IMG/VR virus record: IMGVR_UViG_3300017991_000010
Span: 30,029-94,028 of that record
Reading direction: 5' to 3' (one strand)
DNA from: a virus
DNA: 64,000 nt
Below, piece after piece: positions 8,194 through 22,506 of this stretch. Each line of letters starts with the position of its first letter. Position 1 is the first letter of the stretch. Below the pieces are notes generated by a model. That model did not search any database. It was not told where the DNA came from and was given only the letters and a program-made list of their open reading frames with translations. A program made the translations under genes and the position numbers.

Positions 8194-8223
8194 TTGCCAA
8201 CGCCCCCGTTGGCGTGATATCCT
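8194..8223 (+). promoter_or_regulatory. Leaderless-type promoter
   Basis: TTGCCA-18nt-TATCCT with extended TG; ATG 6 nt downstream and no SD. Confidence 0.6.
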
Positions 8224-8229
8224 CCCCAC

Positions 8230-8685
8230 ATGCCTGGTCCTTTCGATCGATCCATTCTCGACGCGCTGACCGGCTCCCTGGTTGACACCGTCAAGGGCGC
8301 CGCCTACTCCGCCATCCCCGAGTGCAACTGCTGCGACCAGAAGGCCGTGCCCATCCCGTGCGTGGCCTGCGGCGAGTACTCCTGCATCGATCATGGGTTC
8401 TTCAACAAGCGCCTACAGGCGATCTGCGGCCAGTGCGCCATGGCGCTCGAGGTCGACCTCGACGAGGACGAGCCCCAGGTGGCCGACGTCGACGCCGAGC
8501 GCATCGACTGGGCGTTCTCGATCCTGGGCCTGAGTAAGAGCGCGACAAGCGACGAGATCAAGGCCGCGCACCGCAAGCTGGCCATGCAGTACCACCCCGA
8601 CCGTGGGGGCAATGAGACGGACTTCTCGCAGGCGCAGAAGGCCTTCGAGGTCGCGTCGGAGTACGCAAAGCAGGAGGGACGATAG
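8230..8685 (+). CDS. Zn-finger plus J-domain co-chaperone
   Basis: Cys/His-rich N-terminus; ILGL...EIKAAHRKLAMQYHPDRGG with the HPD motif. Confidence 0.85.
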   Translation: MPGPFDRSILDALTGSLVDTVKGAAYSAIPECNCCDQKAVPIPCVACGEYSCIDHGFFNKRLQAICGQCAMALEVDLDEDEPQVADVDAERIDWAFSILGLSKSATSDEIKAAHRKLAMQYHPDRGGNETDFSQAQKAFEVASEYAKQEGR

Positions 8686-8686
8686 C

Positions 8687-9091
8687 GTGCAGGACTCGTA
8701 CAAGGGTGTCAACCAGGTCTCGCAGATAGCGCGCGTGCCCGGCCGCAAGGTCTACCTCTACTACCGCACGGGCCAGGTCTACCTCGAGTGCGAGCTATAC
8801 GACAAGCCGCACCAGGACAGCGAGGGGAAGGTCCCCCCAGAGCTGCACATCCAGTGCCCGGCCTGCGGCGGCGAGTCCATCATCCCAGGCTCCAAGGTCA
8901 AGAAGACCATCCACGTCGAGTACCTCAAGCCCCCCCGTCGCCTCGAGATGCCCGACAACGGCGAGGTCGTCCAGCAGACGGCGCGCGTGACGGTTGACGA
9001 GGTCTGCCAGTGCGGCTATCCTGACCCGGCTGGAAAGGGGAAATGTGGATGGCGCTTCAAGCTGACGGACAACGTGGTCGAGCGAGTGTAG
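8687..9091 (+). CDS. Cys-containing hypothetical protein
   Basis: GTG after SD AGGAGGG; CPACG and C-terminal Cys residues. Confidence 0.65.
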   Translation: MQDSYKGVNQVSQIARVPGRKVYLYYRTGQVYLECELYDKPHQDSEGKVPPELHIQCPACGGESIIPGSKVKKTIHVEYLKPPRRLEMPDNGEVVQQTARVTVDEVCQCGYPDPAGKGKCGWRFKLTDNVVERV

Positions 9092-9166: not shown

Positions 9167-10765
9167 ATGATCTACTTCGTGGCGAGCATCCTAGGCAGGG
9201 GCGAGTGGGCGATCAGGGCGAGGGAGTGGGCGCGGGCCCTCTATCCACTCGCCGACTGCAGGCTCTACTCGACCGATAGGCAGCCCCTCCAGTCCGCCAT
9301 CCTGCCGCGCTACAACCCGACCATCACCAAGGAGCACCCCAACGGCAGCTCGCCCTACGACTTCCTGCTCGAGATGGCGACGCGCGAGCCCAAGGCGGCG
9401 CACTGCACGATCCGCTTCGGTCCCATCCAGACCCTGATGAACATCACCGATCGCGCGCCCTACGAGATCGCGATCACGGACATCCCCGAGAACCTCACCG
9501 GGCGCCAGCGGCGCGTCCTCGAGCGCTTCGACGAGGTCTGGGTTCCCACTCTGGCGATGCAGGAGCTGTACGGGAGTGGGAACTGCGTGGCGTGGGCCGA
9601 GCCACACGCGGGCGGGGGTTTCTGGGGGGCGATCAAGCCGCTCAGCATCGACGACGAGGGGCGCGAGATCACGGCCGCATTCGGGACGTGGGAGGAGATC
9701 GAGCCGCGTGCCGCGCGCTTCTTTGCTCAGCACCCGCCCGACGGGCCCCACCGCTTCTTGGCCGTGTGCCCCGACTGTCCGATCACGACCTCGGGGCAGC
9801 TCGTCAAGGCCTTTGGCCTGGGCGATGTGCGCCTGCCCTTCTCCCTCAGCCCAGCGCTGCCAACGGACATCGAGACCCTGATCGCGATCCGCAAGGCGTG
9901 CAACAACGTCTCTGAAGTGCCCCGCCCCATGGGCCCCTCCTACTGGGATCGCATGAGCTGCTACGCAACCCCGCCGGCCTGGAAGGTGCGCAACCGCCTC
10001 GCGGAGATCCCCAACGACACCGTCGAGCCCGAGCCTGTGCAGGCGAGCGGCCCGGCCTCGAGCGGCACCGACATCTGCTACGTGATCCCCTTCCGCGACC
10101 GGCCTCGGTACATGCTCGAGGACTGCCTGGCTGCGATCCGCGAGGGCGAGCTGCCCAAGGGCGATCGCATTGTGGTCTCCGACCAGTCGCCCGAATTCGA
10201 CCCCGAGGTCCTCGCGCTGTGCGCCCAGTTCGATGCGACGCTCGTGCGCGACATGGCGCCTCCGCACCGCTGGAACGCAGCCAAGTGCCGCAACATTGGC
10301 GTCAGGGCGTGCCCCGAGGCGGACTACTATGCGCTCGTGGACGTGGACTGCACCGTGCCGCCCGACTATGGTGATCGCATCCGCGAAGAGCTGGCCTACG
10401 CGCCCGGCACGCCGATCACGCCCATGGTCTCCGACCTCGACGAGGAAGGTGCCCCTGCTGACTCGCGCCCGGCGCCCGGCTGCACGGTCTACCCGCACCA
10501 CCTCTACTGGGCGGCGAGCGGCATGGATGAGGGCTTCGAGCGCTGGGGCTCCGAGGACATGGACTTGCTCTGGCGCCTGCGGCAGGGCGGGATCGAAGCG
10601 AGCCTGCTCGAGGACGTGATCCTGGAGCACGCCTACCACCCCCCTCAGGAGGGCAAGGCCGAGAGCGGCGAGGCGAACCTCGAGCGCATCAACAGGCGCC
10701 AGCGCGGCGAGCTAGGCGCAGCCAACCCCGACGGATGGGGCGAGGGCGGGGAGGTGGTGGCGTGA
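9167..10765 (+). CDS. Two-domain glycosyltransferase (degenerate GT-B-like N-terminus plus GT2/GT7C)
   Basis: FDEVWVPT; YVIPFRDR, DVD (DxD), GMDEGFERWGSEDMDL. Confidence 0.8.
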   Translation: MIYFVASILGRGEWAIRAREWARALYPLADCRLYSTDRQPLQSAILPRYNPTITKEHPNGSSPYDFLLEMATREPKAAHCTIRFGPIQTLMNITDRAPYEIAITDIPENLTGRQRRVLERFDEVWVPTLAMQELYGSGNCVAWAEPHAGGGFWGAIKPLSIDDEGREITAAFGTWEEIEPRAARFFAQHPPDGPHRFLAVCPDCPITTSGQLVKAFGLGDVRLPFSLSPALPTDIETLIAIRKACNNVSEVPRPMGPSYWDRMSCYATPPAWKVRNRLAEIPNDTVEPEPVQASGPASSGTDICYVIPFRDRPRYMLEDCLAAIREGELPKGDRIVVSDQSPEFDPEVLALCAQFDATLVRDMAPPHRWNAAKCRNIGVRACPEADYYALVDVDCTVPPDYGDRIREELAYAPGTPITPMVSDLDEEGAPADSRPAPGCTVYPHHLYWAASGMDEGFERWGSEDMDLLWRLRQGGIEASLLEDVILEHAYHPPQEGKAESGEANLERINRRQRGELGAANPDGWGEGGEVVA

Positions 10766-11820
10766 TCACCTTCTACGGCCACTTCAGCGGCTACTCGAGC
10801 TACCCGACGGTCTGCCGCGCGATCGCCAACTACTTGCACTCGATCGGCACGAAAGACTTGCAGCTGTGCGACCTGCGGCCCCAGGGCGCGTACGACGGCG
10901 TCCCCGGCATCTCGCGCGTGCCTTCGAGCACGTGGCGTGCGGTGCAGGAGGGGCGGGCCGACCGATGGAACAAGCGCCCAGGCACTGCGCTCGTCTTCGG
11001 CTTCCCCGAGTGGGTGCGGCGCGTCGCCCAGCACGAGCGCATGGTAGGCTACCACGTGTGCGACGTGGACCGAATCCCCCGGCACTGGGCGCACATCATA
11101 AACACCGAGGACCTCGTCATCACGCCCTCGCAGTGGTGCCACGGCGTGTTCCGCAACTGCGGCGTGACGACCCCGATCGCGATTGTGCACCACGGCGTCG
11201 ATGTGGCCTTCGGGGCGGTCAAGCGTCCGAAGCTCCCGCGCGAGCCCCTGACCTTCCTGCACACCTGCTCGGCGGGAGAGCCCGATCGCAAGGGCACCCT
11301 GCAGCTCGTCGAGGCGTGGGAGCGGCTGGCGTCGATGGGCGAGATCGACGCGAAGCTCACGATCCTGTCGTCCTTCCCCGAGGCGCACGCTCCCCTGGCC
11401 AAGAAGAGCTTAGGCATCAAGGTCATCAGCGGCAAGGTGGCCCGGACGCCTGCTGAGATGGCCCAGTGCGTTGCGGGCTTCCACGGCCTCGTACAGCCGT
11501 CCCGCGCCGAGGGCTTCGGCATGCTGCCCCTCGAGTGCGCCGCTGCAGGCCTCCCAACGCTCGCTACGGACTGCACGGGCCACGCAGAGCATGACAGGTA
11601 CTCGACCTCCTGGAGCATTCCCACGGGCCCCTTGGCCCCCTGCGGAGGCGCCCAAGCACCTAGCCTTGACCTTGGCCACGTTGCCAACGCCCTCTTGTAC
11701 ATGATCGAGAACTACGATACACTCCAAGACGAGGCCAATGCCCGGCGCTCAACCATCATGGAGACGTGGGCGTGGCACAAGGTCCTCGAAAACCTGCCGG
11801 AATTGTTGACACCCTCCTGA
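10762..11820 (+). CDS. GT4 glycosyltransferase
   Basis: ITPSQW, HHGVD, DRKG, PSRAEGFGMLPLECAAAGLP (EX7E motif). Confidence 0.9.
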   Translation: MITFYGHFSGYSSYPTVCRAIANYLHSIGTKDLQLCDLRPQGAYDGVPGISRVPSSTWRAVQEGRADRWNKRPGTALVFGFPEWVRRVAQHERMVGYHVCDVDRIPRHWAHIINTEDLVITPSQWCHGVFRNCGVTTPIAIVHHGVDVAFGAVKRPKLPREPLTFLHTCSAGEPDRKGTLQLVEAWERLASMGEIDAKLTILSSFPEAHAPLAKKSLGIKVISGKVARTPAEMAQCVAGFHGLVQPSRAEGFGMLPLECAAAGLPTLATDCTGHAEHDRYSTSWSIPTGPLAPCGGAQAPSLDLGHVANALLYMIENYDTLQDEANARRSTIMETWAWHKVLENLPELLTPS

Positions 11821-11870
11821 GCGTCAGCGCCGGTCTGCTCGCCCTCCTCCTCTTTCCTCAGAGGTAGTCA

Positions 11871-12425
11871 ATGCCCGGTGAGCAGGGATCGCATCCTATC
11901 CAGCAACTGGCGCCGATCGTAGCGCAGGAAACGTCCTACTCCGTCTCGGGCGTGGGCGCGAACGAGACCCGTACGGTACTGTGTGACGCTACAGGCCGGC
12001 TGGTCGTCGTAGCGCCCGCGGCAGGCATCGGCGTCGACATCCAGTTCGTCGATGGCAACCCCGTCCAGAGCGATGGCGCCGGCACCATGAACGTCGCAGT
12101 CCAGGGCGTCGAGGGCGACGACACGACCCTGACCCCAGTCCCCGCAGCGCGCTTCTCGCCCGTCGACAGCGAGGGCGGCTCGCAGGCCGTGACGAACGTG
12201 AGCGCGCGCATCGGTCCCTTGACGGTCAACAAGGCCATCCAGTTCTTCTGCGACGAGATTTGTTGGTGCGCCAAGGGGAACAACACCGTGGTAGCGACCA
12301 ACAACGACACGCCCATCCAGGCTGGCGTGGTCTACGAGTACGTGCCCACGGCGGGGAACGACTATCTCGCGTTCATCCACGACGCGAACGACGGCGACCT
12401 CAAATACGGTCGGGCGGAGGCGTAG
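11871..12425 (+). CDS. Putative spike base/adaptor structural protein
   Basis: Beta-rich and acidic; directly upstream of the spike genes. Confidence 0.5.
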   Translation: MPGEQGSHPIQQLAPIVAQETSYSVSGVGANETRTVLCDATGRLVVVAPAAGIGVDIQFVDGNPVQSDGAGTMNVAVQGVEGDDTTLTPVPAARFSPVDSEGGSQAVTNVSARIGPLTVNKAIQFFCDEICWCAKGNNTVVATNNDTPIQAGVVYEYVPTAGNDYLAFIHDANDGDLKYGRAEA

Positions 12426-12428
12426 ATC

Positions 12429-14069
12429 ATGGGCTCAACGCTCTGGGGCACGACGCTACCGAGGGGCGGTGGTGCTGGTGGTGCGCTTTCACTGCCCGAC
12501 ATCCAGCAGATCCTCATCGTGGACAAGACCGCAGGCACTTACGCGCCCGACGGCACGCAGCAGCGTCCCTTCAACTCGATCGGTGCGGCCGTGACTGCCG
12601 CAGTAGCGCTTGCGCCCACGACGACCAATCGCATTCTGATCTACATCCACCCGGGCATCTACGAAGAAGCCGTAGCCATCACCAACGACTTCATCTACCT
12701 CCAGGGCGAGGATCGGGACACGACGATCATCACGAGCGACACGGTGACCCTGGGGATCACGGCCGACGAGGTCTCGGTTTCGGACCTGACGATCCACAGC
12801 GAGGATGCGTTCTACGCGATCGGCCTCAATGGCTCCTTCAACGAGTTCGTCCGGTTCTTCAACTGCCTGATCGATGTTGGTGACCCTGACGGGTACGTGT
12901 TCATCGAGGGCGGCGCCTCTGCGTGGTTCGAGCGCTGCGATTGGATCGTGGACGATGGTGCAGGAGGCGACCCTGCGCTTGCAACAGACGATGACGCGTC
13001 CAACCGCGTGGTCCTCAACGACTGCACCATCTCAGGTGGCTATATCGACTTCGACGGCGGCGCGCTCACAGTCCGGGACGGCTCGATCTCGTCCGACTCC
13101 GCCAACGGCTGTGTGCGCCTGACTGACGCCAACGTAGGCGTAGTCACGCTCGACAGCGTACACTTCATTGGCTTGGCTGCTGGGGCGCGCAAGATCTACG
13201 TGACCGCGGCGCCCACTCAGGGAATCGTGCGCAACTGCCTCTTTGACTCGGGCGCGAACAACCCCGACATCGACTCGACCGTAGCACTCACCGGCTGGAT
13301 CATTGAGGGCAACGTGATGGAGGCAGGGATCGACTCCAATGTCTCGCACGTGGCCCCGACGCGCTACGTGGGTGCGGCAGGGGACGTCGACTTTTATGCA
13401 GCCATCCAGGACGCTCTCGACGCGTGCACCTTCGACGACATCACCGTGCACCTGCTGCAGGACTTCACGATCGCCGCAGCGCTGACTCCGCCTTCAAGGC
13501 CCGTGATCATCGATGGCCATGGGTTCACGATAACGCGCGCGGCAGGCTCTCCGGCCATAACGATCGGCTCCAGTGACGACCTCGAGACACGGGACGTGAA
13601 CATCGTTGGCAGCATCGACTTTGCTCCCGCGCAAGGAGGCGCTACGCTGCTCCTGGGCCCCGGCACGGTTCTTACGGGCATGCTTGACGTGCAGAGCGGT
13701 GACGCTACAGCCACAGTTGACCTGGACGGAGCTACCGTGAACGGCGACGCGAGCGACAACTACTGCATCCGTCTCGCCGACGCAGACCCGGTCGTGACGA
13801 TCAAGCGCTCCTACCTGAAGGGCAATAGCGGCAACGTGGCCATCTACTGGGATACGGTCACGAACGACGACCTACAGCTCGCGTGGTCTACGGTGATCCA
13901 CGGGAGCGTGGGCGCCAACAACCCTTTCGGGAGGTCGGGTGCGCAGACGCCAGACTACAAGTCGCACCACGACGCGTACAACAGCGATCCCGAAGCAGGG
14001 GCGATCTGGACCAACCTGGTGGCTGCTGGGCAGCGGTTTGACAGCCTAGACGTGAACACGGACTACTAG
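12429..14069 (+). CDS. Beta-helix (pectin-lyase-like) spike/receptor-binding protein 1
   Basis: DGTQQRPFNSIGAA, IYIHPGIYEE, YLQGEDRDTTII, repeated F.NC/V.NC strands. Confidence 0.75.
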   Translation: MGSTLWGTTLPRGGGAGGALSLPDIQQILIVDKTAGTYAPDGTQQRPFNSIGAAVTAAVALAPTTTNRILIYIHPGIYEEAVAITNDFIYLQGEDRDTTIITSDTVTLGITADEVSVSDLTIHSEDAFYAIGLNGSFNEFVRFFNCLIDVGDPDGYVFIEGGASAWFERCDWIVDDGAGGDPALATDDDASNRVVLNDCTISGGYIDFDGGALTVRDGSISSDSANGCVRLTDANVGVVTLDSVHFIGLAAGARKIYVTAAPTQGIVRNCLFDSGANNPDIDSTVALTGWIIEGNVMEAGIDSNVSHVAPTRYVGAAGDVDFYAAIQDALDACTFDDITVHLLQDFTIAAALTPPSRPVIIDGHGFTITRAAGSPAITIGSSDDLETRDVNIVGSIDFAPAQGGATLLLGPGTVLTGMLDVQSGDATATVDLDGATVNGDASDNYCIRLADADPVVTIKRSYLKGNSGNVAIYWDTVTNDDLQLAWSTVIHGSVGANNPFGRSGAQTPDYKSHHDAYNSDPEAGAIWTNLVAAGQRFDSLDVNTDY

Positions 14070-14070
14070 C

Positions 14071-15672
14071 ATGCCTGGAATGCACATCTCGACACTCCCC
14101 CGCGGCGCAGTCGGCCTTGGGCGCCTCTCCCTGCCCGACATCACAAACGTTCTCTTCGTGGACAAGTCCTCCGAGGTGGGCTCGCAGGACGGCACGCAGC
14201 AGAACCCCTACCACACGATCCAGGCGGCCATCACGGCAGCCAACGCGCTCGCCGCTGTGGCTACGCCGTACCTGGTCTACGTGTATCCAGGCATCTACGA
14301 CGAGGCGATCACGCTCTCGACCGACTACGTGTACCTCGCTGGCGCGAACCGGGACACGACGATCGTAGAGAACTCGGGGGCGAACGTCGTCACGATCACC
14401 TCTGACCTGACGAGCATCAACGACCTCACGATCAGGGCAAGCAGCACGCGCCGCACGATCAGCATGGGCGTGGCTGCCAGCAACTACGTCCCGGTCTTCA
14501 ACTGCATTCTGGCTGGCGCGACAGCGAACAACTACGTCGACGCTTCCCTTGGCGCGATGCTGCGGTTTGTTGACTGCGCCTTCGTCAGTGACGTAGACGG
14601 CGTGGTCCTCCTGACTCTTACGGCTACTACTGACGTGCTGGTCGAGAACTGCGCCATCACAGGAGGTCTGCACCACAGGCAAGGGAGCTTGCTCGTACAG
14701 GACTCCAGCATCCTTGCAGAGGCAGTCGACGGCATCCTGATGAACACTGCCGCGGCTTCTTTGTCCGTGCGAAATAGCCACATTGTGAGCACAAACAACT
14801 CGGCGATCATGGTGAACTTCGCGCCGGTGTCGATCGTGCTTCAGAACAACCTGATGTCAGCCAACGCGGCATCCTACGCGATCGGAGCGGGGGTAGCGGT
14901 CACGGGTGCCGTAGTCGAGGACAACATCCTGACCACAGGGCTCGGCATCGACCCGGACGTCTCCCATGTGGCGCCCCACCGGAACGTAGGATCTAACGGG
15001 ATGCGGGACTGGTACGCAACCACACAGAACGCGCTGGACTCCTGCACCTTCGACGGGATCACGGTGCACCTCCTAAAAGATGAGGCTACTGCTGCGCTGC
15101 TTAGGCCGCCTGACTTCTGTGTGATCGTCGACGGACACAACCACACGATCTCGCGCGCTGGGGGCGTGCTCACCATACTGTCGGGAGAGTGCATAATAAC
15201 CAAGCGTTTGGGTTTGGTCGGTAAGATCGTCGTAGCTGGCACCAACGGCCAGTTGTATCTGACAGATAGGAGTTCAGTTCTTGGTGGGATTCAGTTTGCT
15301 GTGACGTCAGCAGGCGCGATGCTAATACAAGACACCGAAATAGTGGGCTCTGCAGTGTGGAACTACCCCGTGCAGATTGACACTAACCCAGGCTTCTCCA
15401 TCCTGATCAACCGCTCGAGGCTCGAAGGGGTATCTGGGTCCCCTGCAGTCTACTGGACGAGCGCGAACGACGACCTATCGATCAAGTACAGCACACTGTG
15501 GCACGGCTCTGGCGCGGGAAACAACCCCTTTGGGCGTAGCGCTGCTCAGACGCCCGACTACAAGAGCTACCAGAGCGCCTACAACTCAGACCCCGAGGCT
15601 GGAGGCATCTGGACAAATCTGGTTGCGGCCGGGCAGCGCTGTGACTCGCTCGACGTCAACACGAACTACTGA
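14071..15672 (+). CDS. Beta-helix spike protein 2 (tandem paralog)
   Basis: DGTQQNPYHTIQAA, VYPGIYDE; C-terminal ~50 aa nearly identical to spike 1. Confidence 0.75.
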   Translation: MPGMHISTLPRGAVGLGRLSLPDITNVLFVDKSSEVGSQDGTQQNPYHTIQAAITAANALAAVATPYLVYVYPGIYDEAITLSTDYVYLAGANRDTTIVENSGANVVTITSDLTSINDLTIRASSTRRTISMGVAASNYVPVFNCILAGATANNYVDASLGAMLRFVDCAFVSDVDGVVLLTLTATTDVLVENCAITGGLHHRQGSLLVQDSSILAEAVDGILMNTAAASLSVRNSHIVSTNNSAIMVNFAPVSIVLQNNLMSANAASYAIGAGVAVTGAVVEDNILTTGLGIDPDVSHVAPHRNVGSNGMRDWYATTQNALDSCTFDGITVHLLKDEATAALLRPPDFCVIVDGHNHTISRAGGVLTILSGECIITKRLGLVGKIVVAGTNGQLYLTDRSSVLGGIQFAVTSAGAMLIQDTEIVGSAVWNYPVQIDTNPGFSILINRSRLEGVSGSPAVYWTSANDDLSIKYSTLWHGSGAGNNPFGRSAAQTPDYKSYQSAYNSDPEAGGIWTNLVAAGQRCDSLDVNTNY

Positions 15673-15682
15673 GAGGACTCTG

Positions 15683-16327
15683 ATGGCCAACGCTTTCTCC
15701 GATTCGTACACCGCGATGATCGATCAGCTGCGCGACATCGAGGAGGCGCTGCGCGGCGTGCAGGAGGTCTGGGACGACCTAGTAGATGAGCAGGTCCCGC
15801 ACCTGGCGGCGCTGGACATGGACGGAGACCCCAGCCCCTTCGACGCCAAGCTCGCTGAGATGGGCACGTGGACGAACGGAGTAGAGCTACGCCCTGCGGA
15901 TCTTGCCGCGTCTGCGCGTTCGCGCTTTGCTTCCGAGGCGCTAGGCATTCGCGCAGCGTCGATCGAGGTGATGCGAAAGCGCGCTCGCAGCATGGCAGAA
16001 CGTCTAGCGCGGACGGCGCGGGAGCAAGCAAGAGGCGTCAGCCTTGTGACGCGCGCTCATGCGGACGCAGTAAAGGACCCGCACGATCTTGCTTGGGTGG
16101 CCAAGCTCCTGCTAGGCCTCCACGCGCTTGACCAAACGGGCGTGCCGAAGGGCGTCGAACCTACTGCGGCAGCCTTGATCGACGACGGGATGAAGCTGTG
16201 CGTGACGCGCGGGGCTACCTTGGCTCGCGTGGTCCGCACTCTGCTCCGCCAGTACCCGGATCACGTGCAGTCCCACGAGGTGCTGAAGGCCGCGCGCTAC
16301 GCAGCGGGGTTGCAGGATGGTAGCTAA
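15683..16327 (+). CDS. Helical hypothetical protein
   Basis: SD GAGGA; coupled to its neighbours. Confidence 0.6.
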   Translation: MANAFSDSYTAMIDQLRDIEEALRGVQEVWDDLVDEQVPHLAALDMDGDPSPFDAKLAEMGTWTNGVELRPADLAASARSRFASEALGIRAASIEVMRKRARSMAERLARTAREQARGVSLVTRAHADAVKDPHDLAWVAKLLLGLHALDQTGVPKGVEPTAAALIDDGMKLCVTRGATLARVVRTLLRQYPDHVQSHEVLKAARYAAGLQDGS

Positions 16328-17234
16328 GCTCAACCACCACATCGGAGCGCATGCGGGAGATGCAGCAGCCAACGCGTTCATCGCGGCAGCTGGTTGGACT
16401 GTCGAGAGCGGCTGGATGTACGACGACACGTCTTCAGGAAAGCTCAAGACCTGGGACGACCAGCAAAACGCTTGGCTCTTCTTCGGCGGCGCGTCGGGCG
16501 AGTCTGGACAAGAAACGCTTTGGGAGTGGAACGGCAACGACATCTCGCAGTTCGATAGTCCGCTGTCATACGGCGGAGGAAACGGCACACTCTCGGTGGC
16601 GACCTATCCTGCAGGTCTAGACGTGCCGCGCCGCAACCGCTTGGTGTACACCCATGACGGAAGCCCTGCAGTGCGCGCCGGCCGCCTGTACTGGATCAAC
16701 GACCTCCCCACGCTGCCTGATGCCTACGTAGTGGAAGCCACGCTGGGCCCGCGCAACGAGCTAACCCTCGGCGCCAACACGGCCCCAGGTGTAGCTGTCC
16801 TGGGGCAGGATACGGCGCACTTCTTGCTGTTTGGCCGAGGGGGTGCCGGCTTCCAGGACGACCTCAACCTGGAGATCACCAACGGGGTGACATACGACGT
16901 TGGCGCACGGTGGACTACCATGCTGACCGGCGCGATGGATCGCACGGACGAAGGGTACCGAGTTCGGATGCTTGTCGATCTCCGAGACCCCACGGGCTCG
17001 ACAGACCCTGGCATCAGCCTGTACCTGCTTCGCCCTGGCATGGAGGCCGTAACACGCGCCAGCTCGGTCGGCTGGACTGGATCTGGCGGTTCTCCGCCCC
17101 CAGACCCCTCGTCGTCCTGGGATGCGGGTTGGCAGTCCGGCGGCACATGCAAGAACGTAGGGCTGAACTTCCTGCATGACGCCACCGCCGCCGGCTCTGC
17201 GTACATCACAGACTTCCGTGTTCTAACCGTCTAG
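16317..17234 (+). CDS. Fibre/decoration protein: N-terminal anchor plus lectin-like beta domain
   Basis: N-terminus HHIGAHAGDAAANAFI...GW is shared with 38365-38928; beta-rich C-terminus. Confidence 0.6.
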   Translation: MVAKLNHHIGAHAGDAAANAFIAAAGWTVESGWMYDDTSSGKLKTWDDQQNAWLFFGGASGESGQETLWEWNGNDISQFDSPLSYGGGNGTLSVATYPAGLDVPRRNRLVYTHDGSPAVRAGRLYWINDLPTLPDAYVVEATLGPRNELTLGANTAPGVAVLGQDTAHFLLFGRGGAGFQDDLNLEITNGVTYDVGARWTTMLTGAMDRTDEGYRVRMLVDLRDPTGSTDPGISLYLLRPGMEAVTRASSVGWTGSGGSPPPDPSSSWDAGWQSGGTCKNVGLNFLHDATAAGSAYITDFRVLTV

Positions 17235-17243
17235 GAGCAGATC

Positions 17244-17339
17244 ATGTCAGGACTCATTCCACACTACCTCGGGCCCTTCGACCGGCACCACCTGGGTCGC
17301 GACGGGGTTCTGATGTCCCCTGGACAGCGCCTCGCCTAG
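17244..17339 (+). pseudogene. 31-codon remnant of an anchor-domain gene
   Basis: SD AGGAG, then MSGLIPHYLGPF, matching MSTLVPHYIGQF at 38928, then unrelated sequence and a stop. Confidence 0.5.
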
Positions 17340-17350
17340 CGTGATATCAT
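17321..17350 (+). promoter_or_regulatory. Leaderless-type promoter of the second glycan operon
   Basis: TGGACA-18nt-TATCAT with extended TG; ATG 6 nt downstream. Confidence 0.6.
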
Positions 17351-17356
17351 CCCCCC

Positions 17357-18124
17357 ATGCCTGGTTTGACTTACGGCGTCATCATCCCTACCAGCGGCAA
17401 CCGATACGTCCCCTACCTCCAGAACACCCTGGGCGCGATCCGGCGCCAGCGCTCCGAGGTCGGGATCAAGGTCGTGTGCCTCTACGACGAGCTGGAGGAC
17501 TTCAAGCCGCTGGCCGACGTGTGCTGCGAGCACGACGCCGACCTGATCGTCACCGCGGGCAAGCACCCCGCCTTCTGCGCCCCCCGCGCGCGCAACATCG
17601 GAACGCGCGCGTCAGAGGCCGACGTGCTCCTCCACATCGACAGCGACATCGTGCTCCACCCGTCCACTTTCGATGAGCTGGACGCGCTCTTCACTGCCGA
17701 GCAGGGCATCGCGGTCATCCTGTCCGTGTACCTGATGACGGGCTGCTGGCCCGCCGACCCGATCTTCCAGATCACCGACCCCGCCGCCTTCGACTCGGTG
17801 TGCCGAGGGGGCAAGTTCACCCCTACGGGCTACGGCGCCGTGGCGGTCAAGCGTGCGGACGTTGAGCACATGCGCGGCCATGACGAGCGCTTCTACGGGC
17901 CCTGGGCCGACGACGTGGACTTCGTCCGGCGCCTCGAGCGCATGGGCCGGCGCGTCGTGCGTACGCAGGACGAGTGCAGGATGAGCATGATGCACCAGCA
18001 CCACAGCTACCCCGGCGGCAAGATCCCCAACGCCTCGAACCCCTTCACGGCGCGCAACCGCAAGATCCTTGCCGAGTCGACCGACATCATCCGCAACCCG
18101 GACGGGTGGGGGGACCAGGACTGA
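17357..18124 (+). CDS. GT2/GT7C glycosyltransferase
   Basis: GVIIPT, ARNIG, HIDSD, GHDERFYGPWADDVDF, HQHH. Confidence 0.88.
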   Translation: MPGLTYGVIIPTSGNRYVPYLQNTLGAIRRQRSEVGIKVVCLYDELEDFKPLADVCCEHDADLIVTAGKHPAFCAPRARNIGTRASEADVLLHIDSDIVLHPSTFDELDALFTAEQGIAVILSVYLMTGCWPADPIFQITDPAAFDSVCRGGKFTPTGYGAVAVKRADVEHMRGHDERFYGPWADDVDFVRRLERMGRRVVRTQDECRMSMMHQHHSYPGGKIPNASNPFTARNRKILAESTDIIRNPDGWGDQD

Positions 18125-18984
18125 TGCATCCCACAGTGGCCCGGCGCATCCAGAGCGGCGAGATGAAGGACCCGCGCACCGGGGGCTTTTGGACCTTCGT
18201 ACCCTACATGCCCAACCGGCCCGTGAGCTGCCTGACGCGCGCGCTCATCGCGCTGGACCGCGCCGTCGTGGACGCACGCCACAGGGTCGAGGTCGTCGTC
18301 CAGGGCCCCTGCAAGCACGAGCTGCCCGACCCCGACGTGTTCGACTTCGACCTGCACTACGTCCACAACGAGCGCAACGAGGGCAACGCCAAGCCCCCCG
18401 CGGACTCCATCCGACGCTTCCTCGACAGCGACTGCGCCTGGTGGTGCCGCCTGCAAGACGACATCATCCTCGCCGATCGCGCTTGGCACCAGCTCGTGCT
18501 GATGATCCAGCAGGAGGCAGACAGAGGCGTGCGCATCGCCTGCGCGCAGGTCTCCACCGGCAACGCCAAGTGGATGAAGCCCTGGTGCTTCGAGATCAAG
18601 CCCGTGCCCGGCGGCGTCCCGCATCTAGCCCTCGTCGAGCACGCGCACGCCACCCACTCGGGCGGCTGGATGCAGTGGCACGTGGCTGAGTGCGTCGGCT
18701 TTGGTTCCACCGTGATCCGTCGCGAGCCTCTCGAGGAGGGTTGCATCCCGGACGAGCGCTATTTCGTCGGCGGCGTTGACACCGACCTCGCGCTGCAGTT
18801 CCACGCGGCGGGCTATCGGTCGATCCTGACGGTCGACCCCGTCTGCAAGCACATCCACAGCCAGTGCTCCACCGAGGCCTACGACAACGCGCGCTACTCG
18901 AAGGAGCGGCACATGGAGGCGTGGCGCGTCTGGCGCGACAAGTGGGGCATGGACTTCGAGTTCCTCAGGACCTTCGGGAGGTAG
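18124..18984 (+). CDS. GT2-like glycosyltransferase
   Basis: NEGNA, LQDDI, GFGSTVIRR, DERYFVGGVDTDL. Confidence 0.75.
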   Translation: MHPTVARRIQSGEMKDPRTGGFWTFVPYMPNRPVSCLTRALIALDRAVVDARHRVEVVVQGPCKHELPDPDVFDFDLHYVHNERNEGNAKPPADSIRRFLDSDCAWWCRLQDDIILADRAWHQLVLMIQQEADRGVRIACAQVSTGNAKWMKPWCFEIKPVPGGVPHLALVEHAHATHSGGWMQWHVAECVGFGSTVIRREPLEEGCIPDERYFVGGVDTDLALQFHAAGYRSILTVDPVCKHIHSQCSTEAYDNARYSKERHMEAWRVWRDKWGMDFEFLRTFGR

Positions 18985-18986
18985 GA

Positions 18987-19655
18987 ATGAACCGCAAGAC
19001 CCTCGAGTTCGATCGCAGGACGGTCGAGACCAACCAGCGCGAGTGGACCGGCGAAGGCCTCTGGGAGGCGATCTGGAGGGACCTGCTGCCCCCCGGCGCC
19101 GACGGCCATCTCCTCGACATCGGCTGCGCCGTGCATTGCTGGTCCTGCAGCGACTACAAGGTGATCCGCTGCGACCAGTACGCCACGCGCGATCAGGGCG
19201 GCTGGACCCACTTCAAGACGGGCGACATCAACGGCCGCTGGCCCTACGGAGATCAGTCTTGCGAGGGCGTGATCGCTGTCGAGGTGCTCGAGCACATCGA
19301 AAACGTCTGGCACTTCTACCGCGAGGCAGCTCGGGTCGCGCGCCGCTTCGTGCTGGTGACCACGCCCAACGTCGAGTGCCAGATCAGCCGCCGCCTCTTC
19401 GCCAAGACCGGACACTTGTTCAACTTCTCGCCCGAGGAGCGCGAACGCCACCGCCACATCAGCCCGATCTTCGGCTGGCAGATCGAGCACGCGGCCGAGG
19501 CTGCAGGCTGGCGGATCGAACACATCGGCTACGAGAGCCCCGACCTCGCGAAGGAGCCCCTCGTCAAGTCGACCGTCGATGCGCACCCTGAGCTGTCGCA
19601 CCTCGCGCCGGCGGGCATCAACCAGAGGACCCTCGTTGCCCTATGCGTACGCTAG
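18987..19655 (+). CDS. Class I SAM-dependent methyltransferase
   Basis: LLDIGC, GDIN..WPY, EVLEHIEN, VTTPN. Confidence 0.85.
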   Translation: MNRKTLEFDRRTVETNQREWTGEGLWEAIWRDLLPPGADGHLLDIGCAVHCWSCSDYKVIRCDQYATRDQGGWTHFKTGDINGRWPYGDQSCEGVIAVEVLEHIENVWHFYREAARVARRFVLVTTPNVECQISRRLFAKTGHLFNFSPEERERHRHISPIFGWQIEHAAEAAGWRIEHIGYESPDLAKEPLVKSTVDAHPELSHLAPAGINQRTLVALCVR

Positions 19656-20485
19656 CGATCATCGGACAGGACCGCTGCGGCAGCACGATCCTGGCGCGCA
19701 TGCTCGACCGAGTCCCGGGCCTAGCGTCCGCGGGCGAAGTCCACTGGCTTGTCGACGCGCCCCCTCACCGCCCCCTAGCAACGCGCATTCGGGGCTGGCA
19801 CATCTCGCGACGCTGTATGCGGCACGGCGCGTCCTGCCCCGTCTTCGATGAGCCTTTCATCACGCAGCGCTTTCCCGAGGGGGACTTGTATGCGATCGTG
19901 GCCAAACGGCTCGGGTGCGACACGCTCGTAAGCGCCGACAAGTCGCCCCAGCACTTCGAGCGCTTTACCGAGCGGGGGCAGCCCTTCGGCGTGATCTTGT
20001 ACAAGCGGCCCCAGCGCGCGATCTACTCGCACATGGTCGGCGAGGCGAAGACCTTCGAGGAGGCGCTCGAGGCCTGGCACCGATTCTACGCGCTCGCGAT
20101 CCGCTGGGCGCCTCAGTGGTGTAAGGAGTACGTCGCGCTCTCCTACGAGGACATCGTGCGGTCGCCGGGCTGGAGCGTCTACGCGATCACGCGCATGCTG
20201 GGCGCGCCCCGCACCGAGATCCCCCTCGCGCTCCCCGACGAGTACCACTTCATCGGCGGCAATCGCAACGCGCACCTCTGGGGGCGCATCAGCGAGGACC
20301 GCCGGTGGGAGAAGAACCTGGCCGCGCATCTGCAGGCCCAGGCAGACAAGGACCCCAGGACCAAGCGGATACTGCGCCACCTCGAGCCCCTGCGACGAGA
20401 GAGTCTGCATGGCTGGCGACGCGCACAGGAGGAAGCTGATGCTACCGGGCGTGACGATCGTGATCCCGATCACGCGACTGACTGA
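19643..20485 (+). CDS. Sulfotransferase-like protein
   Basis: IIGQDRCGSTILARML (PAPS 5'-PSB loop), GEVHW, DKSP, LSYEDIVRSP, RWEKNL. Confidence 0.75.
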   Translation: MRTLAIIGQDRCGSTILARMLDRVPGLASAGEVHWLVDAPPHRPLATRIRGWHISRRCMRHGASCPVFDEPFITQRFPEGDLYAIVAKRLGCDTLVSADKSPQHFERFTERGQPFGVILYKRPQRAIYSHMVGEAKTFEEALEAWHRFYALAIRWAPQWCKEYVALSYEDIVRSPGWSVYAITRMLGAPRTEIPLALPDEYHFIGGNRNAHLWGRISEDRRWEKNLAAHLQAQADKDPRTKRILRHLEPLRRESLHGWRRAQEEADATGRDDRDPDHATD

Positions 20486-21302
20486 GGACTATGCGACGCG
20501 CCTGGGCTGCTGCCTGCGCTCGATCTCGCGCCAGACGCTAACCCGCGAGCGACGCGACACGATCATCTCGCTCTGCCTGCAGCCCAGGTCGATCGAGGAG
20601 AAGGCAGACGTGCTATCGGCGCTCCTAGGCGAGGCGATCATCCACCAGGCCTCGATCGTCTGCACCAAGCACATGCTCAACACGGACTACCCCACCGCGC
20701 TCGTGCGCAACATCGGGGGCAGGTGGGGCCGGCGCGAGTACCTGACCTTCGCCGACGTAGACGGCGTGCTCCACCCTGAGGCACTCGAGGTTTCGCTGGA
20801 GCGCCTGGACGCAGCCCCCGAGACGTCGCCCCCCGCCGTGACGTGCATCCAGACGGCGATGACCAACTGGCCCCTGGGCTCGGCTAACTACGAGACGAGC
20901 GACCCTGAGGTCTTCGAGCACCGCTGCAACCAGTTCCCTCTAGCCATCGGCACGGGCTGCTGTACCGTGACGACCCAGCGCGTCTTCGAGTACGTCCGCG
21001 GCTTCGACGAGCGCTACACCTGGTATGGCGCGTCCGACGTCGACTTCACCGACCGACTCGTGCGTGGGGGCTACAGAGTCGAGAACCTGACCGAGACCTG
21101 TGGCTTGATGAACATGCACCAGCACCATGACAGAGGCGATCGCGACAAGGGCCACAGGCTCAGCGAGAAGCGCCGGGCCATGCACGACATCCTCGAGTCC
21201 TCGAAGGGCCAGCTCGTCCGCAACGAGGGCGAGCCCTGGGGCGGGATCGATTTGGCCGCGGATGCGCTTGATGGCTGGCCAAATCCAACGGAAGGATCAT
21301 GA
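20439..21302 (+). CDS. GT2/GT7C glycosyltransferase
   Basis: TIVIPI, VRNIG, FADVD, GFDERYTWYGASDVDF, HQHH. Confidence 0.85.
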   Translation: MLPGVTIVIPITRLTEDYATRLGCCLRSISRQTLTRERRDTIISLCLQPRSIEEKADVLSALLGEAIIHQASIVCTKHMLNTDYPTALVRNIGGRWGRREYLTFADVDGVLHPEALEVSLERLDAAPETSPPAVTCIQTAMTNWPLGSANYETSDPEVFEHRCNQFPLAIGTGCCTVTTQRVFEYVRGFDERYTWYGASDVDFTDRLVRGGYRVENLTETCGLMNMHQHHDRGDRDKGHRLSEKRRAMHDILESSKGQLVRNEGEPWGGIDLAADALDGWPNPTEGS

Positions 21303-22447
21303 GAGTCTACATCCTAGGCATCGACGGGTACATCGGCTGGGCGCTGGCCCAGTACCTCTCCTACCACGGGCACGACGTCCACGGCATGGACAACGGCGCC
21401 AAGCGACGCTGGGCTGCGGGCCTAGGCGCGCGCTCAGTGCTCAAGACGCCGCTAATGTCAGAGCGATTCGCCGCTCTCGAGAGCGCCACGCAGAACCGCG
21501 GCATGCGTCCCTTCTCCGCGCTGAGCTATCACATCCTGCGCAACGAGCTGGCAGCCTTCGCCCCCGACGCGATCGTCAACCTCGCGCAGCAGCCGAGCGC
21601 GCCCTATTCGATGAAGGGGCCCGAGGAGTGCGCCGAGACCAAGCGCAACAATGAGATCGGCATGACCAACGTGCTGTGGGCGATGCGCGAGGCCTGCCCC
21701 GACGCGCACCTGGTCGCGATCGGAAGCATGGGGGAACTCGGCACCCCTCCCTGCCCGATCCCGGAGCCCCCTTTCTCGCTCAGCGTCCACGGTGTGGACT
21801 GGGAGCCTCAGCACTTCCCGCGCTGTCCCTCGAGCCTGTACCACAGCGCAAAGGTGGCGAGCACCCACGACATCGAGCGCGCCTGCGAGTGGTGGGGCCT
21901 GAGCGCGACGGACATCATGCAGGGCGTGGTCTACGGCGTCGATCACCCGGGCAGGTTCGGGGGGCTCTCGGGCAACCCCTCCATCTGGGCAGACGAGTGC
22001 TTCGGCACCGCGCTCAACCGCTTCTGCGCCCAGGCTGCGATCGGGATGCCGCTCACCGTCTACGGCGCCGGGACGCAGCGGCGCGGCTTCTTGCCCCTGC
22101 GCGACAGCCTGCAGTGCCTGCGGCTCGTCCTCGAGAACCCCGCTGAGGGCTACCGCTGCATCCACCAGTTCGATCGGGCCTACCATGTCCTCGAGCTGGC
22201 CGAGGCGGTCCAGGGCGTAGGCAGGCCGATGGGCCTCAACGTCCGCATCGAGCACCTCGACAACCCCCGCTACGAGGCCGAGGAGCACGTCTACTCGCCC
22301 GAGGTGCGCTGGCTCCCCGAACACGGCTACGACCCCGCGGGGGACCTGCACGGCGAGATCGAAGAGATGCTGCGCGTCATGATCGCCAACCGCGAGCGTA
22401 TCGAGGGGATGCGCGGCGTGCTGGCTCCGACGACGCGCTGGCGCTAG
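21299..22447 (+). CDS. sqdB: UDP-sulfoquinovose synthase (SQD1/SqdB/Agl3 family)
   Basis: GIDGYIGW, QPSAPYSM, GSMGE, YHSAK, QGVVYG, FGTALNRFC.QA, PLTVYG, NPR.EAEEH: family-specific motifs along the whole length. Confidence 0.9.
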   Translation: MRVYILGIDGYIGWALAQYLSYHGHDVHGMDNGAKRRWAAGLGARSVLKTPLMSERFAALESATQNRGMRPFSALSYHILRNELAAFAPDAIVNLAQQPSAPYSMKGPEECAETKRNNEIGMTNVLWAMREACPDAHLVAIGSMGELGTPPCPIPEPPFSLSVHGVDWEPQHFPRCPSSLYHSAKVASTHDIERACEWWGLSATDIMQGVVYGVDHPGRFGGLSGNPSIWADECFGTALNRFCAQAAIGMPLTVYGAGTQRRGFLPLRDSLQCLRLVLENPAEGYRCIHQFDRAYHVLELAEAVQGVGRPMGLNVRIEHLDNPRYEAEEHVYSPEVRWLPEHGYDPAGDLHGEIEEMLRVMIANRERIEGMRGVLAPTTRWR

Positions 22448-22491: not shown

Positions 22492-22500
22492 TGGTACACT
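22492..22500 (+). promoter_or_regulatory. Extended -10 element, leaderless
   Basis: TGgTACACT, 6 nt before ATG 22507. Confidence 0.55.
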
Positions 22501-22506
22501 CGGAGC

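Follow-up and report, generated by a model that had tools for sequence, protein, structure and literature searches.

The segment from window position 9167 to 22447 in a viral genome, read on the + strand throughout, carries a cluster of enzymes predicted to build a sulfonated, sulfated, and methylated glycan, and we tentatively favor, at somewhat short of an even chance, the interpretation that the virus uses them to glycosylate a surface component of its virion in the cytoplasm. The window analyzed comprises 64,000 nucleotides (positions 30,029 to 94,028 of IMG/VR record IMGVR_UViG_3300017991_000010). The source of the DNA is an uncultured 94-kb marine-sediment virus. Five glycosyltransferase (GT) genes, a SAM methyltransferase gene, a Sulfotransfer_3 gene, and an SqdB homologue flank two paralogous genes for double beta-helix proteins, and eight glycan-related genes in 13 kb are far more than chance would place in a 94-kb genome. 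Pfam, PDB alignment, fold, and ESM Atlas matches confirmed the gene list of the original prediction, including a full-length SqdB, and its coordinates (Table 1). The count of five GT genes stood, but the first of them encodes two GT folds, which brings the number of GT-fold domains to six. The proposed layout of two blocks flanking "spike genes" also held, with the addition that three genes without annotated function (11871 to 12425, 15683 to 16327, and 16317 to 17234) lie between the blocks, and the supposed spikes are two paralogous double beta-helix proteins whose role in the virion we infer.

Table 1. Genes and promoter-like sites in and around the cluster (window coordinates)
Feature	Position	Strand	Evidence or remark
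Promoter-like site 1	8194..8223	+	TTGCCA-18-TG-TATCCT; ends 7 nt before ATG at 8230; heads operon 8230-17234
J-domain protein, first gene of operon 1	8230..8685	+	Cys-rich N-terminus; C-terminal J domain (DnaJ-like co-chaperone), PF00226 E 4e-13
Small basic protein with Cys pairs (zinc-ribbon-like)	8603..9091	+	translation; start codon uncertain
Two-domain glycosyltransferase	9167..10765	+	GT-B-like residues 1-285; GT-A/GT2 residues 295-530
GT4-family (GT-B) glycosyltransferase	10735..11820	+	PF13692 47 bits, E 4e-12; PF20706 GT4-conflict 42 bits, E 7e-11; phrog_2170 E 9e-24
184-aa protein	11871..12425	+	directly upstream of beta-helix genes
Spike-like protein A	12429..14069	+	two tandem right-handed parallel beta-helices; model pLDDT 81
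Spike-like protein B	14071..15672	+	paralogue of A, 43% identity
214-aa protein	15683..16327	+	translation; candidate assembly factor (a guess)
305-aa protein, last gene of operon 1	16317..17234	+	translation
Promoter-like site 2	17321..17350	+	TGGACA-18-TG-TATCAT; 10/12 matches; ends 7 nt before ATG at 17357; heads six-gene glycan operon
GT2 (GT-A) glycosyltransferase	17357..18124	+	PF10111 35.9 bits, E 8e-9; PF13641 E 2e-6
Fifth glycosyltransferase gene, GT-A fold	18124..18984	+	GT2 clusters by ESM Atlas features (0.98); GT2 models by structure (TM 0.69-0.73)
SAM-dependent class I methyltransferase	18987..19655	+	PF13489 E 1e-7; PF08241 E 5e-6
PAPS-type sulfotransferase	19643..20485	+	PF13469 34.5 bits, cut-off 27
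GT-A glycosyltransferase	20439..21302	+	PF02709 32 bits, E 1e-7; stop overlaps SqdB start (ATGA)
SQD1/SqdB-family UDP-sulfoquinovose synthase homologue	21299..22447	+	PDB 1qrr E 7e-73, residues 2-381
Third extended -10	22492..22500	+	TGGTACACT; 6 nt before ATG at 22507; heads three small genes (22507-24016)
Tyrosine integrase	24596..25846	-	PF00589 E 9e-16

The SqdB homologue aligns collinearly, end to end, with Arabidopsis SQD1. It retains the G-x-D-G-Y-x-G NAD-binding motif, Y182, H183, K186, and Q209, with Ser at T145, and thus has the same catalytic residues as the UDP-sulfoquinovose synthases SQD1 (PDB 1qrr/1i24), bacterial SqdB, and Sulfolobus Agl3, whereas its partner genes differ from those of the sulfolipid pathway. 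Against NF041015 it scored 361 bits across its full length, below the NCBIfam equivalog cut-off of 575; this shortfall, for an enzyme of predicted activity, counts against virion glycosylation. By sequence comparison, the protein belongs to a small and divergent clade of six members, found in metagenomes only, which are 51 to 57% identical to one another, have a loop insertion of their own, and lack the C-terminal tail of Chloroflexota-type proteins; its identity to any cellular or IMG/VR copy is at most 48%. The DxD and MHQHH motifs of the overlapping GT-A enzyme are invariant in four foreign homologues, two of which come from contigs of the same length (30,617 and 4,677 nt) as the contigs of SqdB homologues P0003 and P0078. 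Elsewhere, too, this GT-A gene thus seems to accompany SqdB, which makes its product a candidate sulfoquinovosyl transferase.

The remaining GTs are more varied. The two-domain protein fell just below the cut-offs of Pfam GT2 families, and its AlphaFold model (pLDDT 83) aligned in VIA-align to BshA (Z 14.3) and sucrose-phosphate synthase (Z 14.1) over residues 1 to 285 and to heparosan synthase 2 (Z 21.4) over residues 299 to 528; many of its 446 relatives in the representative library have an equal two-domain length. The GT4 enzyme is 26 to 29% identical to GTs in 127 Streptomyces and 9 Rhodococcus phage records, so that actinophages are its nearest cultured relatives. The fifth GT is too divergent in sequence for a Pfam match and displays weak local similarity to the neighboring GT2s near the DER-x-D-x-D region. 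In fold, the GT-A domains resemble the protein O-glycosyltransferase ppGalNAc-T, but also polysaccharide polymerases and teichoic-acid GTs. The methyltransferase weakly matches the oligosaccharide methyltransferase MftM (E 1e-4), and the N-terminal GQDRCGST of the sulfotransferase, of the 5'-phosphosulfate-binding type, aligns to RSGST of CurM-type 4gox, a match that is not significant overall. These families, motifs, and folds support a predicted chemistry in which an oligosaccharide carries sulfoquinovose, O-sulfate, and O-methyl. The original prediction placed such a glycan on capsid or spikes, or sulfoquinovose in the lipid SQDG; as to the target, nothing in the sequence shows either. No hydrophobic segment was found in the cluster proteins, and all of the enzymes are soluble by this measure. 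Moreover, no open reading frame of the 94-kb genome has more than two such segments, and multi-pass membrane proteins are thus absent; the virus encodes no flippase, polymerase, ligase, oligosaccharyltransferase, or polyprenyl-phosphate transferase of its own for lipid-carrier export.

All cluster genes fall into two predicted operons, one from 8230 to 17234 and a six-gene glycan operon from 17357 to 22447. Each is headed by a promoter-like site of the extended -10 type, the second being the top-scoring site of the promoter scan, and the two are near-identical: both contain GCGTGATATCNTCCCCNCATGCCTGGT, and 27 of 29 positions around the -10 element and start codon agree. This motif was found nowhere else in the genome, and GTGATATC occurs only twice in the 94 kb. 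Transcripts from both sites would be leaderless. Because the twin promoters are unique in the genome, the glycan and beta-helix genes are probably co-regulated. The link between them is thus stronger than adjacency alone, since the two GT genes at 9167 to 11820 are packed tightly into one predicted operon with the J-domain and beta-helix genes and the second block has the near-identical promoter. The three small genes behind the third extended -10 element stand between the cluster and the integrase. The glycan genes have GC3 values of 0.83 to 0.93, similar to core genes, and are therefore no recent insertion.

Protein A matched PL6 alginate lyases, mannuronan C5-epimerase, and pectin methylesterases in Foldseek at E values of 5e-5 to 1e-3 and phage tailspikes at about 1e-2, and it has only five foreign homologues. 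Its paralogue B combines a conserved N-cap, junction, and C-terminal 100 residues with a variable middle and has a lower GC3 than neighboring genes; some homologues of these proteins bear 230-residue N-terminal extensions. With conserved ends, a variable middle, and a modeled fold used by tailspikes, both look like receptor-binding proteins, in keeping with a putative spike role. The spike homologues lie on contigs whose lengths (106,262, 54,030, and 74,992 nt) do not match those of contigs with homologues of SqdB, the GT2b protein, or the two-domain GT, and the sulfo-sugar block may therefore be accessory, a point against virion glycosylation. As for the other neighbors, 8603-9091 and 15683-16327 had no family match, 16317-17234 no family or PDB match, and 11871-12425 nothing in Pfam, PHROG, or PDB. 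The protein encoded at 6555 to 7469 is Thr-rich and membrane anchored and carries a GTTTTTTQAPTT run; genes upstream encode small membrane-anchored proteins and one protein with 118 Lys plus Arg residues.

Our preferred reading is a virus-encoded, cytoplasmic glycan-building line that would operate independently of a lipid carrier. The host would provide UDP-glucose, sulfite, PAPS, SAM, and other nucleotide sugars. The SqdB homologue would convert UDP-glucose and sulfite to UDP-sulfoquinovose, the translationally coupled GT-A enzyme would transfer the sulfoquinovose, and the four remaining GT genes, with five GT-fold domains, would attach further sugars; the sulfotransferase would add O-sulfate and the methyltransferase O-methyl, perhaps as a cap. 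The acceptor would most likely be a virion surface component modified during cytoplasmic folding and assembly, with the two spike-like proteins, their neighbors, and the Thr-rich protein as candidates. In favor of this reading we count the enzyme identities, protein solubility, shared operon and promoter, core-like GC3, and the resemblance of the beta-helix proteins to receptor-binding proteins. The GTTTTTTQAPTT run together with the modeled likeness of the GT-A folds to ppGalNAc-T, and by analogy a similar island beside a phage tail tube gene and the mycobacteriophage precedent (both below), are consistent with it. On the other hand, the modeled GT-A folds match polysaccharide polymerases, teichoic-acid GTs, and protein GTs alike, and the promoters, which look like ordinary sigma-70 sites, are not necessarily late ones. 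In addition, the second block sits between spike-like genes and integrase, where P22- and Sf6-type phages keep serotype-conversion genes.

This last point leads to a serious rival, if on balance an unlikely one, in which the enzymes remodel the host envelope for lysogenic conversion or superinfection exclusion. These soluble enzymes would act at cytoplasmic steps of a host O-antigen, exopolysaccharide, teichoic-acid-like polymer, or S-layer glycan, and the added sulfoquinovose, sulfate, and methyl groups would keep rival viruses, or the beta-helix proteins of this virus itself, from binding infected or lysogenic cells. Temperate phages carry serotype-conversion modules such as P22 gtrABC and Sf6 oac, in the order tailspike, conversion genes, att-int. 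The same placement between receptor-binding protein genes and integrase is seen here: spike-like genes, a separately promoted glycan operon, small genes, and an integrase 2.1 kb past SqdB. Fold matches of the beta-helix proteins to enzymes of acidic polysaccharides suggest that the receptor may be an acidic glycan, and the fold matches of the GT-A enzymes include Staphylococcus aureus TarS and the prophage enzyme TarP (PDB 6h1j), soluble GT-A proteins, the latter altering a host wall polymer. Iyer et al. 2021 (PMC7824862) interpreted phage GT islands as diversifying outer polysaccharides and pre-empting attachment of other phages. Unlike these modules and TarP, however, the cluster has many more enzymes and no Gtr-type or other membrane component in the genome, and two of its GT genes lie in the predicted spike operon; with the same promoter on the second operon, this argues for expression alongside structural genes. 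So many GT domains point to a chain built de novo more than to side-branch modification, and the GC3 of the block is in line with that of the core genome.

Rather improbable is a glycolipid for an internal viral membrane, in which SQDG or a larger sulfoglycolipid, produced in the host membrane by SqdB and at least one GT, would enter the particle and could there, through its negative charge, pair with a polycationic membrane-anchored virion protein. Sulfolipid synthesis is the classic role of SQD1/SqdB (PDB titles), the upstream membrane-anchored and Lys/Arg-rich proteins would suit such a particle, and in two deltaproteobacterial genomes the SqdB neighbor is a GT2 rather than a GT4, which makes a GT-A partner compatible with cellular use. 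Nonetheless, the SQDG pathway proper fits poorly. One transferase suffices for SQDG, a need exceeded by six GT-fold domains, a sulfotransferase, and a methyltransferase, and the GT that seems linked to SqdB is a GT-A enzyme, not an SqdX-type GT4. The GT4 gene belongs to the other operon, at a distance of 9.5 kb from SqdB, and has no detectable similarity to SqdB-flanking genes at 240 SqdB-bearing loci (80 cellular), and no GT has an evident membrane-binding segment.

We consider it quite improbable that the beta-helix proteins act as epimerase, lyase, or esterase to tailor the product of a polysaccharide pathway, in which the two-domain GT would polymerize an acidic chain that is sulfated, methylated, trimmed, and exported by host machinery. 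Their top fold matches are such enzymes, glycosaminoglycan polymerases (heparosan synthase 2 and K4CP) are the closest matches to the C-terminal part of the two-domain GT, and the whole model of this GT aligns to EXTL3; but TM-scores to the lyases, epimerases, and esterases are low (0.16 to 0.31), the paralogues with their conserved ends, variable middle, and extended homologues resemble receptor-binding proteins, and the virus has no export components. DNA hypermodification, with sugars including sulfoquinovose placed on modified viral bases, is very improbable indeed: DNA-glycosylating phage GTs are well known (bioRxiv 10.1101/2023.12.21.572611), but a genome search found no thymidylate-synthase-type hydroxymethylase or C5 DNA methyltransferase (a TET/JBP search matched nothing here, nor in any control genome, and so carries no weight), and the neighbors of the cluster are virion-side genes, with the replication genes (PolA, 49102 to 51669) far away.

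The cluster has several parallels among known viral systems. On an unrelated tailed phage contig in IMG/VR (L164), a GT2+GT4 fusion is followed by methyltransferase, sulfotransferase-like, and SqdB genes, 1.5 kb upstream of the tail tube gene. The order of these three genes, with GTs and beside a structural gene, is the same, but the virus type differs and the proteins are not orthologous, with detectable similarity only for SqdB (48%) and the sulfotransferase (25%). Chlorovirus PBCV-1 and mimivirus decorate their capsid or fibril proteins with glycans assembled by multi-enzyme, host-independent lines of their own, in which multi-domain GTs and methyltransferase activity take part; these are eukaryotic giant viruses, and their glycans are not known to hold a sulfonated sugar. 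A Mu-like virus encoding an SqdB enzyme together with GTs, as here, has been published (Mara et al. 2020, PMC7785012). With SqdB homologues on at least 95 IMG/VR contigs and the tailed phage island besides, the original view that such a pathway would be unusual for a bacterial virus was overstated. In contrast to the L164 and Mu-like viruses, the present island is split around beta-helix genes under twin promoters. According to PMC12619734, which cites Freeman et al. 2023, GTs of mycobacteriophages Che8, Corndog, and Myrna make capsid and tail tube glycans; there, soluble phage-encoded GTs act in the cytoplasm on structural proteins of the same phage, as proposed here, where the glycan is predicted and the acceptors are candidates.

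Altogether, the cluster is not unique, since similar viral SqdB gene islands are already known; new here are soluble enzymes without virus-encoded export machinery, twin-promoter operons, a metagenome-only SqdB clade, and a candidate sulfoquinovosyl transferase. If virion glycosylation is correct, the particle would have a strongly anionic coat.

The sixteen genes at 8230-22447 are tightly packed and all lie on the + strand. The gene cluster that the original prediction placed at 9167-22447 is present, and family evidence was obtained for each enzyme class (see the table). Its count of five glycosyltransferase (GT) genes also held; because the model of the first GT protein shows two GT folds, these five genes carry six GT-fold domains. 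Block 1 consists of the two-domain GT and GT4 genes, block 2 of the six enzyme genes of operon 2, and the spike-like genes lie between the blocks.

Features of the glycan gene cluster and basis of each assignment
Feature	Position	Strand	Operon	Remarks
Operon 1	8230-17234	+	1	J-domain protein, zinc-ribbon-like protein, two GT genes, 184-aa protein, both beta-helix proteins, two unknowns
Two-domain GT	9167-10765	+	1	GT-B-like N-domain and GT-A C-domain, predicted from the model
GT4	10735-11820	+	1	above Pfam cut-offs
Spike-like A	12429-14069	+	1	beta-helix protein
Spike-like B	14071-15672	+	1	beta-helix protein
Operon 2	17357-22447	+	2	six-enzyme glycan operon; genes overlap or abut
GT2	17357-18124	+	2	above Pfam cut-off
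Divergent GT-A	18124-18984	+	2	ESM Atlas features and structure only
Class I SAM methyltransferase	18987-19655	+	2	family evidence
Sulfotransfer_3 enzyme	19643-20485	+	2	PF13469 above cut-off
GT-A (GT2b)	20439-21302	+	2	PF02709 above cut-off
SQD1/SqdB homologue	21299-22447	+	2	family evidence

In the model of the two-domain GT (pLDDT 83), a fold search matched the N-terminal domain to BshA (Z 14.3 over 253 residues) and sucrose-phosphate synthase (Z 14.1), and the C-terminal domain to heparosan synthase 2 (Z 21.4), K4CP (Z 19.8), and many GT-A structures (Z 18-21). The N-terminal domain is short (285 residues), and its fold points to a probable GT-B assignment. An ESM Atlas lead for this domain scored below 0.9 and was replaced by the fold search. 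A close relative has the two halves, GT-B-like and GT-A, as separate open reading frames (P0141 and P0286; 46% and 66% identity to the corresponding halves of the viral protein) on a single metagenome contig of 6,055 nt. The GT-A assignment held across the set; the weakest case was the divergent GT-A protein, which had no Pfam hit and was placed with ESM Atlas GT2 clusters through its features (0.98) and its structure (TM 0.69-0.73). The sulfotransferase scored 34.5 bits against PF13469 (gathering cut-off, 27), covers profile positions 3-215 of 216, and carries the 5'-phosphosulfate-binding motif GQDRCGST at residues 8-15. The nearest cultured relatives of the GT4 are in Streptomyces and Rhodococcus phages. 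PDB sequence searches with the GT4 and with the proteins of 11871-12425 and 16317-17234 returned nothing usable, and the genes at 11871-12425, 15683-16327, and 16317-17234 had no match in any of the searches that covered them.

The product of the last gene of operon 2 aligned collinearly and over its whole length with Arabidopsis SQD1 (1qrr_A), its residues 2-381 matching residues 3-382 of the chain (E 7.3e-73). It has the NAD-binding motif GIDGYIGW at residues 7-14, GSMGE with Ser replacing Thr145, YHSAKV with Tyr182, the family-specific His183, and Lys186 kept, and also Gln209; in SQD1, Thr145, Tyr182, and Lys186 are the catalytic residues. The score against NCBIfam NF041015 was 360.8 bits, short of the equivalog cut-off of 575, which seems to be tuned to one subgroup; because only one control genome in 14 scores above that threshold, though Sulfolobus acidocaldarius also matches the family, the lower score is weak evidence against activity. 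Among 5.8 billion proteins, the closest relatives were five metagenomic sequences (51-57% identity, contigs of 5-31 kb), followed by hundreds at about 48%, many from Anaerolineae. Identity elsewhere was at most 48% in the genome scan and at most 45% among the matches listed in the metagenome scan. In a FastTree tree of 163 sequences, the six SqdBs formed their own clade (SH-like 98) on a long branch nested in no cellular phylum; neither donor nor host can be read from it.

GT2b, whose gene adjoins sqdB and whose stop overlaps the SqdB start as ATGA, had only four foreign homologues (48-54% identity), in which its DxD (D106 and D108) is invariant. For two of the homologue clusters, the longest contigs (30,617 and 4,677 nt) have the sizes of those bearing the SqdB homologues P0003 and P0078. 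These equal contig sizes alone suggest that GT2b and SqdB travel together, which makes GT2b a candidate sulfoquinovosyl transferase.

Predicted promoters link the two blocks. Within 7000-26500, the top-scoring sigma-70-like site spans 17321-17350, its end 7 nt short of the ATG that opens block 2; another spans 8194-8223, at the same distance from the ATG of the J-domain protein gene. Both contain the stretch GCGTGATATCNTCCCCNCATGCCTGGT, and the octamer GTGATATC occurs at only these two places in the 94-kb genome. At 8194-8238 and 17321-17365, the homologous leaderless promoters read GCGTGATATCNTCCCCNC, then directly ATGCCTGGT; the first genes of both operons start Met-Pro-Gly, and only six arrangements of an extended -10 plus ATG exist genome-wide. 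Thus, with matching sites 7 nt before the ATGs and a private motif, the region is predicted to comprise two leaderless operons with homologous promoters. A third such promoter lies 5' of three small genes (22507-24016), which separate the cluster from the opposite-strand integrase. The product of the last of these genes (23435-24016) is 193 aa long, has a hydrophobic segment at its N terminus, and matched no family.

Spike-like A and B, the two beta-helix proteins of operon 1, are paralogues with 43% identity. The model of spike-like A (pLDDT 81) has two right-handed beta-helices in tandem. By Foldseek it matched PL6 alginate lyases, mannuronan C5-epimerases, and pectin methylesterases at E 5e-5 to 1e-3 and phage tailspikes at about E 1e-2, with low TM-scores for all matches; PHROG tail-protein and hydrolase matches were marginal (E 4e-4). 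Only five foreign homologues were found, on contigs of up to 106 kb. The N-cap, the helix junction, and the last 100 residues are conserved, with low identity between them; judged from the sequences, conserved ends around a variable middle would be the pattern expected of receptor-binding proteins. Virion spikes is a reasonable label for what these proteins may be. The segment 14071-17234, with spike-like B and the two genes that follow, has a GC content of 0.61 and GC3 below 0.78, against GC3 of 0.80-0.93 in its neighbours, and may be a more recently exchanged host-recognition module. At the head of the spike operon, 8230-9091 encodes a small protein with a Cys-rich N terminus and a C-terminal J domain, followed by a basic zinc-ribbon-like protein; the two may recruit host DnaK for beta-helix folding. 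Upstream, the 304-aa protein of 6555-7469 has a mucin-like Thr run (GTTTTTTQAPTT...LPTTSGTT) near its N terminus and a Gly-rich hydrophobic C terminus; it is a candidate O-glycan acceptor and a candidate membrane-anchored virion protein.

The IMG/VR virus record is a single sequence of 94,028 bp with direct terminal repeats (CheckV completeness, 100), of which the window covers bases 30029-94028. The genome has a GC content of 66% and no tRNA genes were found in it; it encodes a tyrosine integrase, a PolA-UDG fusion, an SbcC-like ATPase, an SNF2 helicase, and AAA ATPases. Pfam and PHROG matches are almost absent for about 40 of its proteins, among them those encoded upstream of the cluster that are presumed to be structural. 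Four further metagenome runs, from sediment and seawater, had the same sequence in their Logan contigs, with 0 differing letters in the contigs listed; two of these runs (X3 and X4) gave contigs of identical sizes and may be one data set filed twice. In all four (X2, X3, X4, and X6; 2018 sediment metagenomes and a 2021 seawater metagenome), low-depth contigs were identical to 7000-26500 of the window. This recurrence of an identical sequence indicates that the virus is a real, recurrent entity. No RNA run was among the listed runs containing the sequence. Contig joints reported in these runs had sides of only 20-22 nt and were treated as spurious. Spike profile searches for a host gave no match in 301 Chloroflexota genomes and generic N-cap matches only in 301 Actinomycetota genomes.

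INPHARED phages had no megablast match to the virus, and lowering the tblastn threshold to E 1e-3 gave no match to its SqdB. No kin came from scanning IMG/VR with any of five queries: SqdB by itself, the two-domain GT, the 5266-6546 protein, and the alignments of the spike and GT2b families. With the alignment of the SqdB clade as query, SqdB homologues of up to 48% identity were found in IMG/VR on at least 95 viral contigs. None of these contigs, L164 excepted, shared a further protein of the cluster or of the upstream module, and across 240 SqdB-bearing loci no other protein was common with the cluster apart from weak matches in L164 and L188. L164, a 54-kb contig of an unrelated tailed phage, carries at 2862-14559 a GT9-like gene, a GT2-GT4 fusion, a radical SAM gene, an unknown gene, Methyltransf_23, a sulfotransferase-like gene 25% identical to that of our virus, SqdB, and an NDP-sugar epimerase, and its Phage_tube_2 tail tube gene lies 1.5 kb downstream of the island. 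A putative UDP-sulfoquinovose synthase has also been described in a Mu-like virus (Mara et al. 2020, PMC7785012). The cluster belongs with the virus-encoded glycan islands containing SqdB, and the recurrence of SqdB with GTs in L164 and the Mu-like virus suggests a convergent, widespread strategy. Our cluster differs in that it also has a sulfotransferase and a methyltransferase, is wired to the spike-like genes by twin promoters, and belongs to an unusual virus.

In the proposed pathway, the SqdB homologue would first make UDP-sulfoquinovose, the coupled GT2b would transfer the sulfoquinovose, the other GT domains would extend the chain, and O-sulfation and O-methylation would come last. The genome has no APS kinase and no NTP/nucleotidyl transferase that the searches could find, and the virus must draw UDP-glucose, sulfite, and PAPS from its host. 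The original prediction, a sulfonated, sulfated, and methylated glycan built on capsid or spikes or as sulfolipid for a viral membrane, is partly supported: the enzyme set supports the predicted chemistry, the promoters and operons strengthen the link to the spike-like genes, and a virion target is favoured. We put the chance that the acceptor is a virion surface component at close to, but below, even. It is favoured because two GT genes are cotranscribed with the beta-helix genes and a co-chaperone, because operon 2 carries the private promoter of operon 1, because the cluster genes are compositionally native (GC3 0.83-0.93), and because the unrelated phage L164 sets an analogous island beside its tail tube gene. 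The fuller proposal, in which an oligosaccharide bearing sulfoquinovose, O-sulfate, and O-methyl groups is made by a temperate bacterial virus and placed on its spikes or capsid-associated proteins by a wholly cytoplasmic route with six GT domains and dedicated twin leaderless promoters, is tentative and more doubtful.

The main rival, remodelling of a host surface glycan, is somewhat unlikely. Block 2 lies between the spike-like genes and the integrase, and P22-like phages have serotype-conversion genes in the same position, between spike and integrase genes; the beta-helix fold also matches enzymes of acidic polysaccharides. Phage GT islands have been read likewise (Iyer et al. 2021, PMC7824862). 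The cluster enzymes have no hydrophobic segments, and no open reading frame in the 94-kb genome has more than two (19 residues, Kyte-Doolittle mean of at least 1.6); the virus therefore has no flippase, polymerase, ligase, oligosaccharyltransferase, or polyprenyl-phosphate transferase of its own. Nor does the genome encode, with the GTs, the Wzx/Wzy, ABC, or Gtr membrane components of a lipid-carrier pathway; host membrane components could still serve.

A glycolipid for the viral membrane is improbable. The GT4 lies 9.5 kb from SqdB, had no tblastn match (E 1e-5) to genes within 6-10 kb of SqdB in the 240 SqdB-bearing loci, and gave no SqdX-named NCBIfam hit. The neighbours of sampled cellular SqdB genes were GT2 or housekeeping genes, with no SqdX reference among them. 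At two deltaproteobacterial loci (L009:7457-8623 and L010:2438-3481, from a Desulfarculaceae MAG and strain NaphS2), a GT2 rather than an SqdX-type GT4 is directly 3' of SqdB, a neighbour that would fit a GT-A partner in cells as well, and in Chloroflexota SqdB lies between asd and hisD. Still less probable is that the beta-helix proteins serve as tailoring enzymes of a polysaccharide pathway, and DNA modification is the least credible reading: the searches showed no way for the virus to make a glycosylatable DNA base, with neither a ThyA-type hydroxymethylase nor a C5 DNA methyltransferase found, and a TET/JBP search, with no match in the viral genome or in any control genome, was uninformative.

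The fuller proposal, if true, would to our knowledge give the first sulfonated and sulfated virion glycan of a virus of bacteria and would identify a GT-A family as a sulfoquinovosyl transferase. The compact, fully soluble ten-enzyme set is a handy in vitro system for the target question. Should the product be confirmed, GT2b would represent a candidate GT-A class of sulfoquinovosyl transferase, from a very small family for which the searches gave no more than four foreign members, and sulfonated and sulfated sugars would join the short list of glycans that prokaryotic viruses make themselves. The virus would then tune the charge of its virion or of the host surface by means of host sulfite and PAPS, which would be relevant in sulfur-cycling marine sediments.
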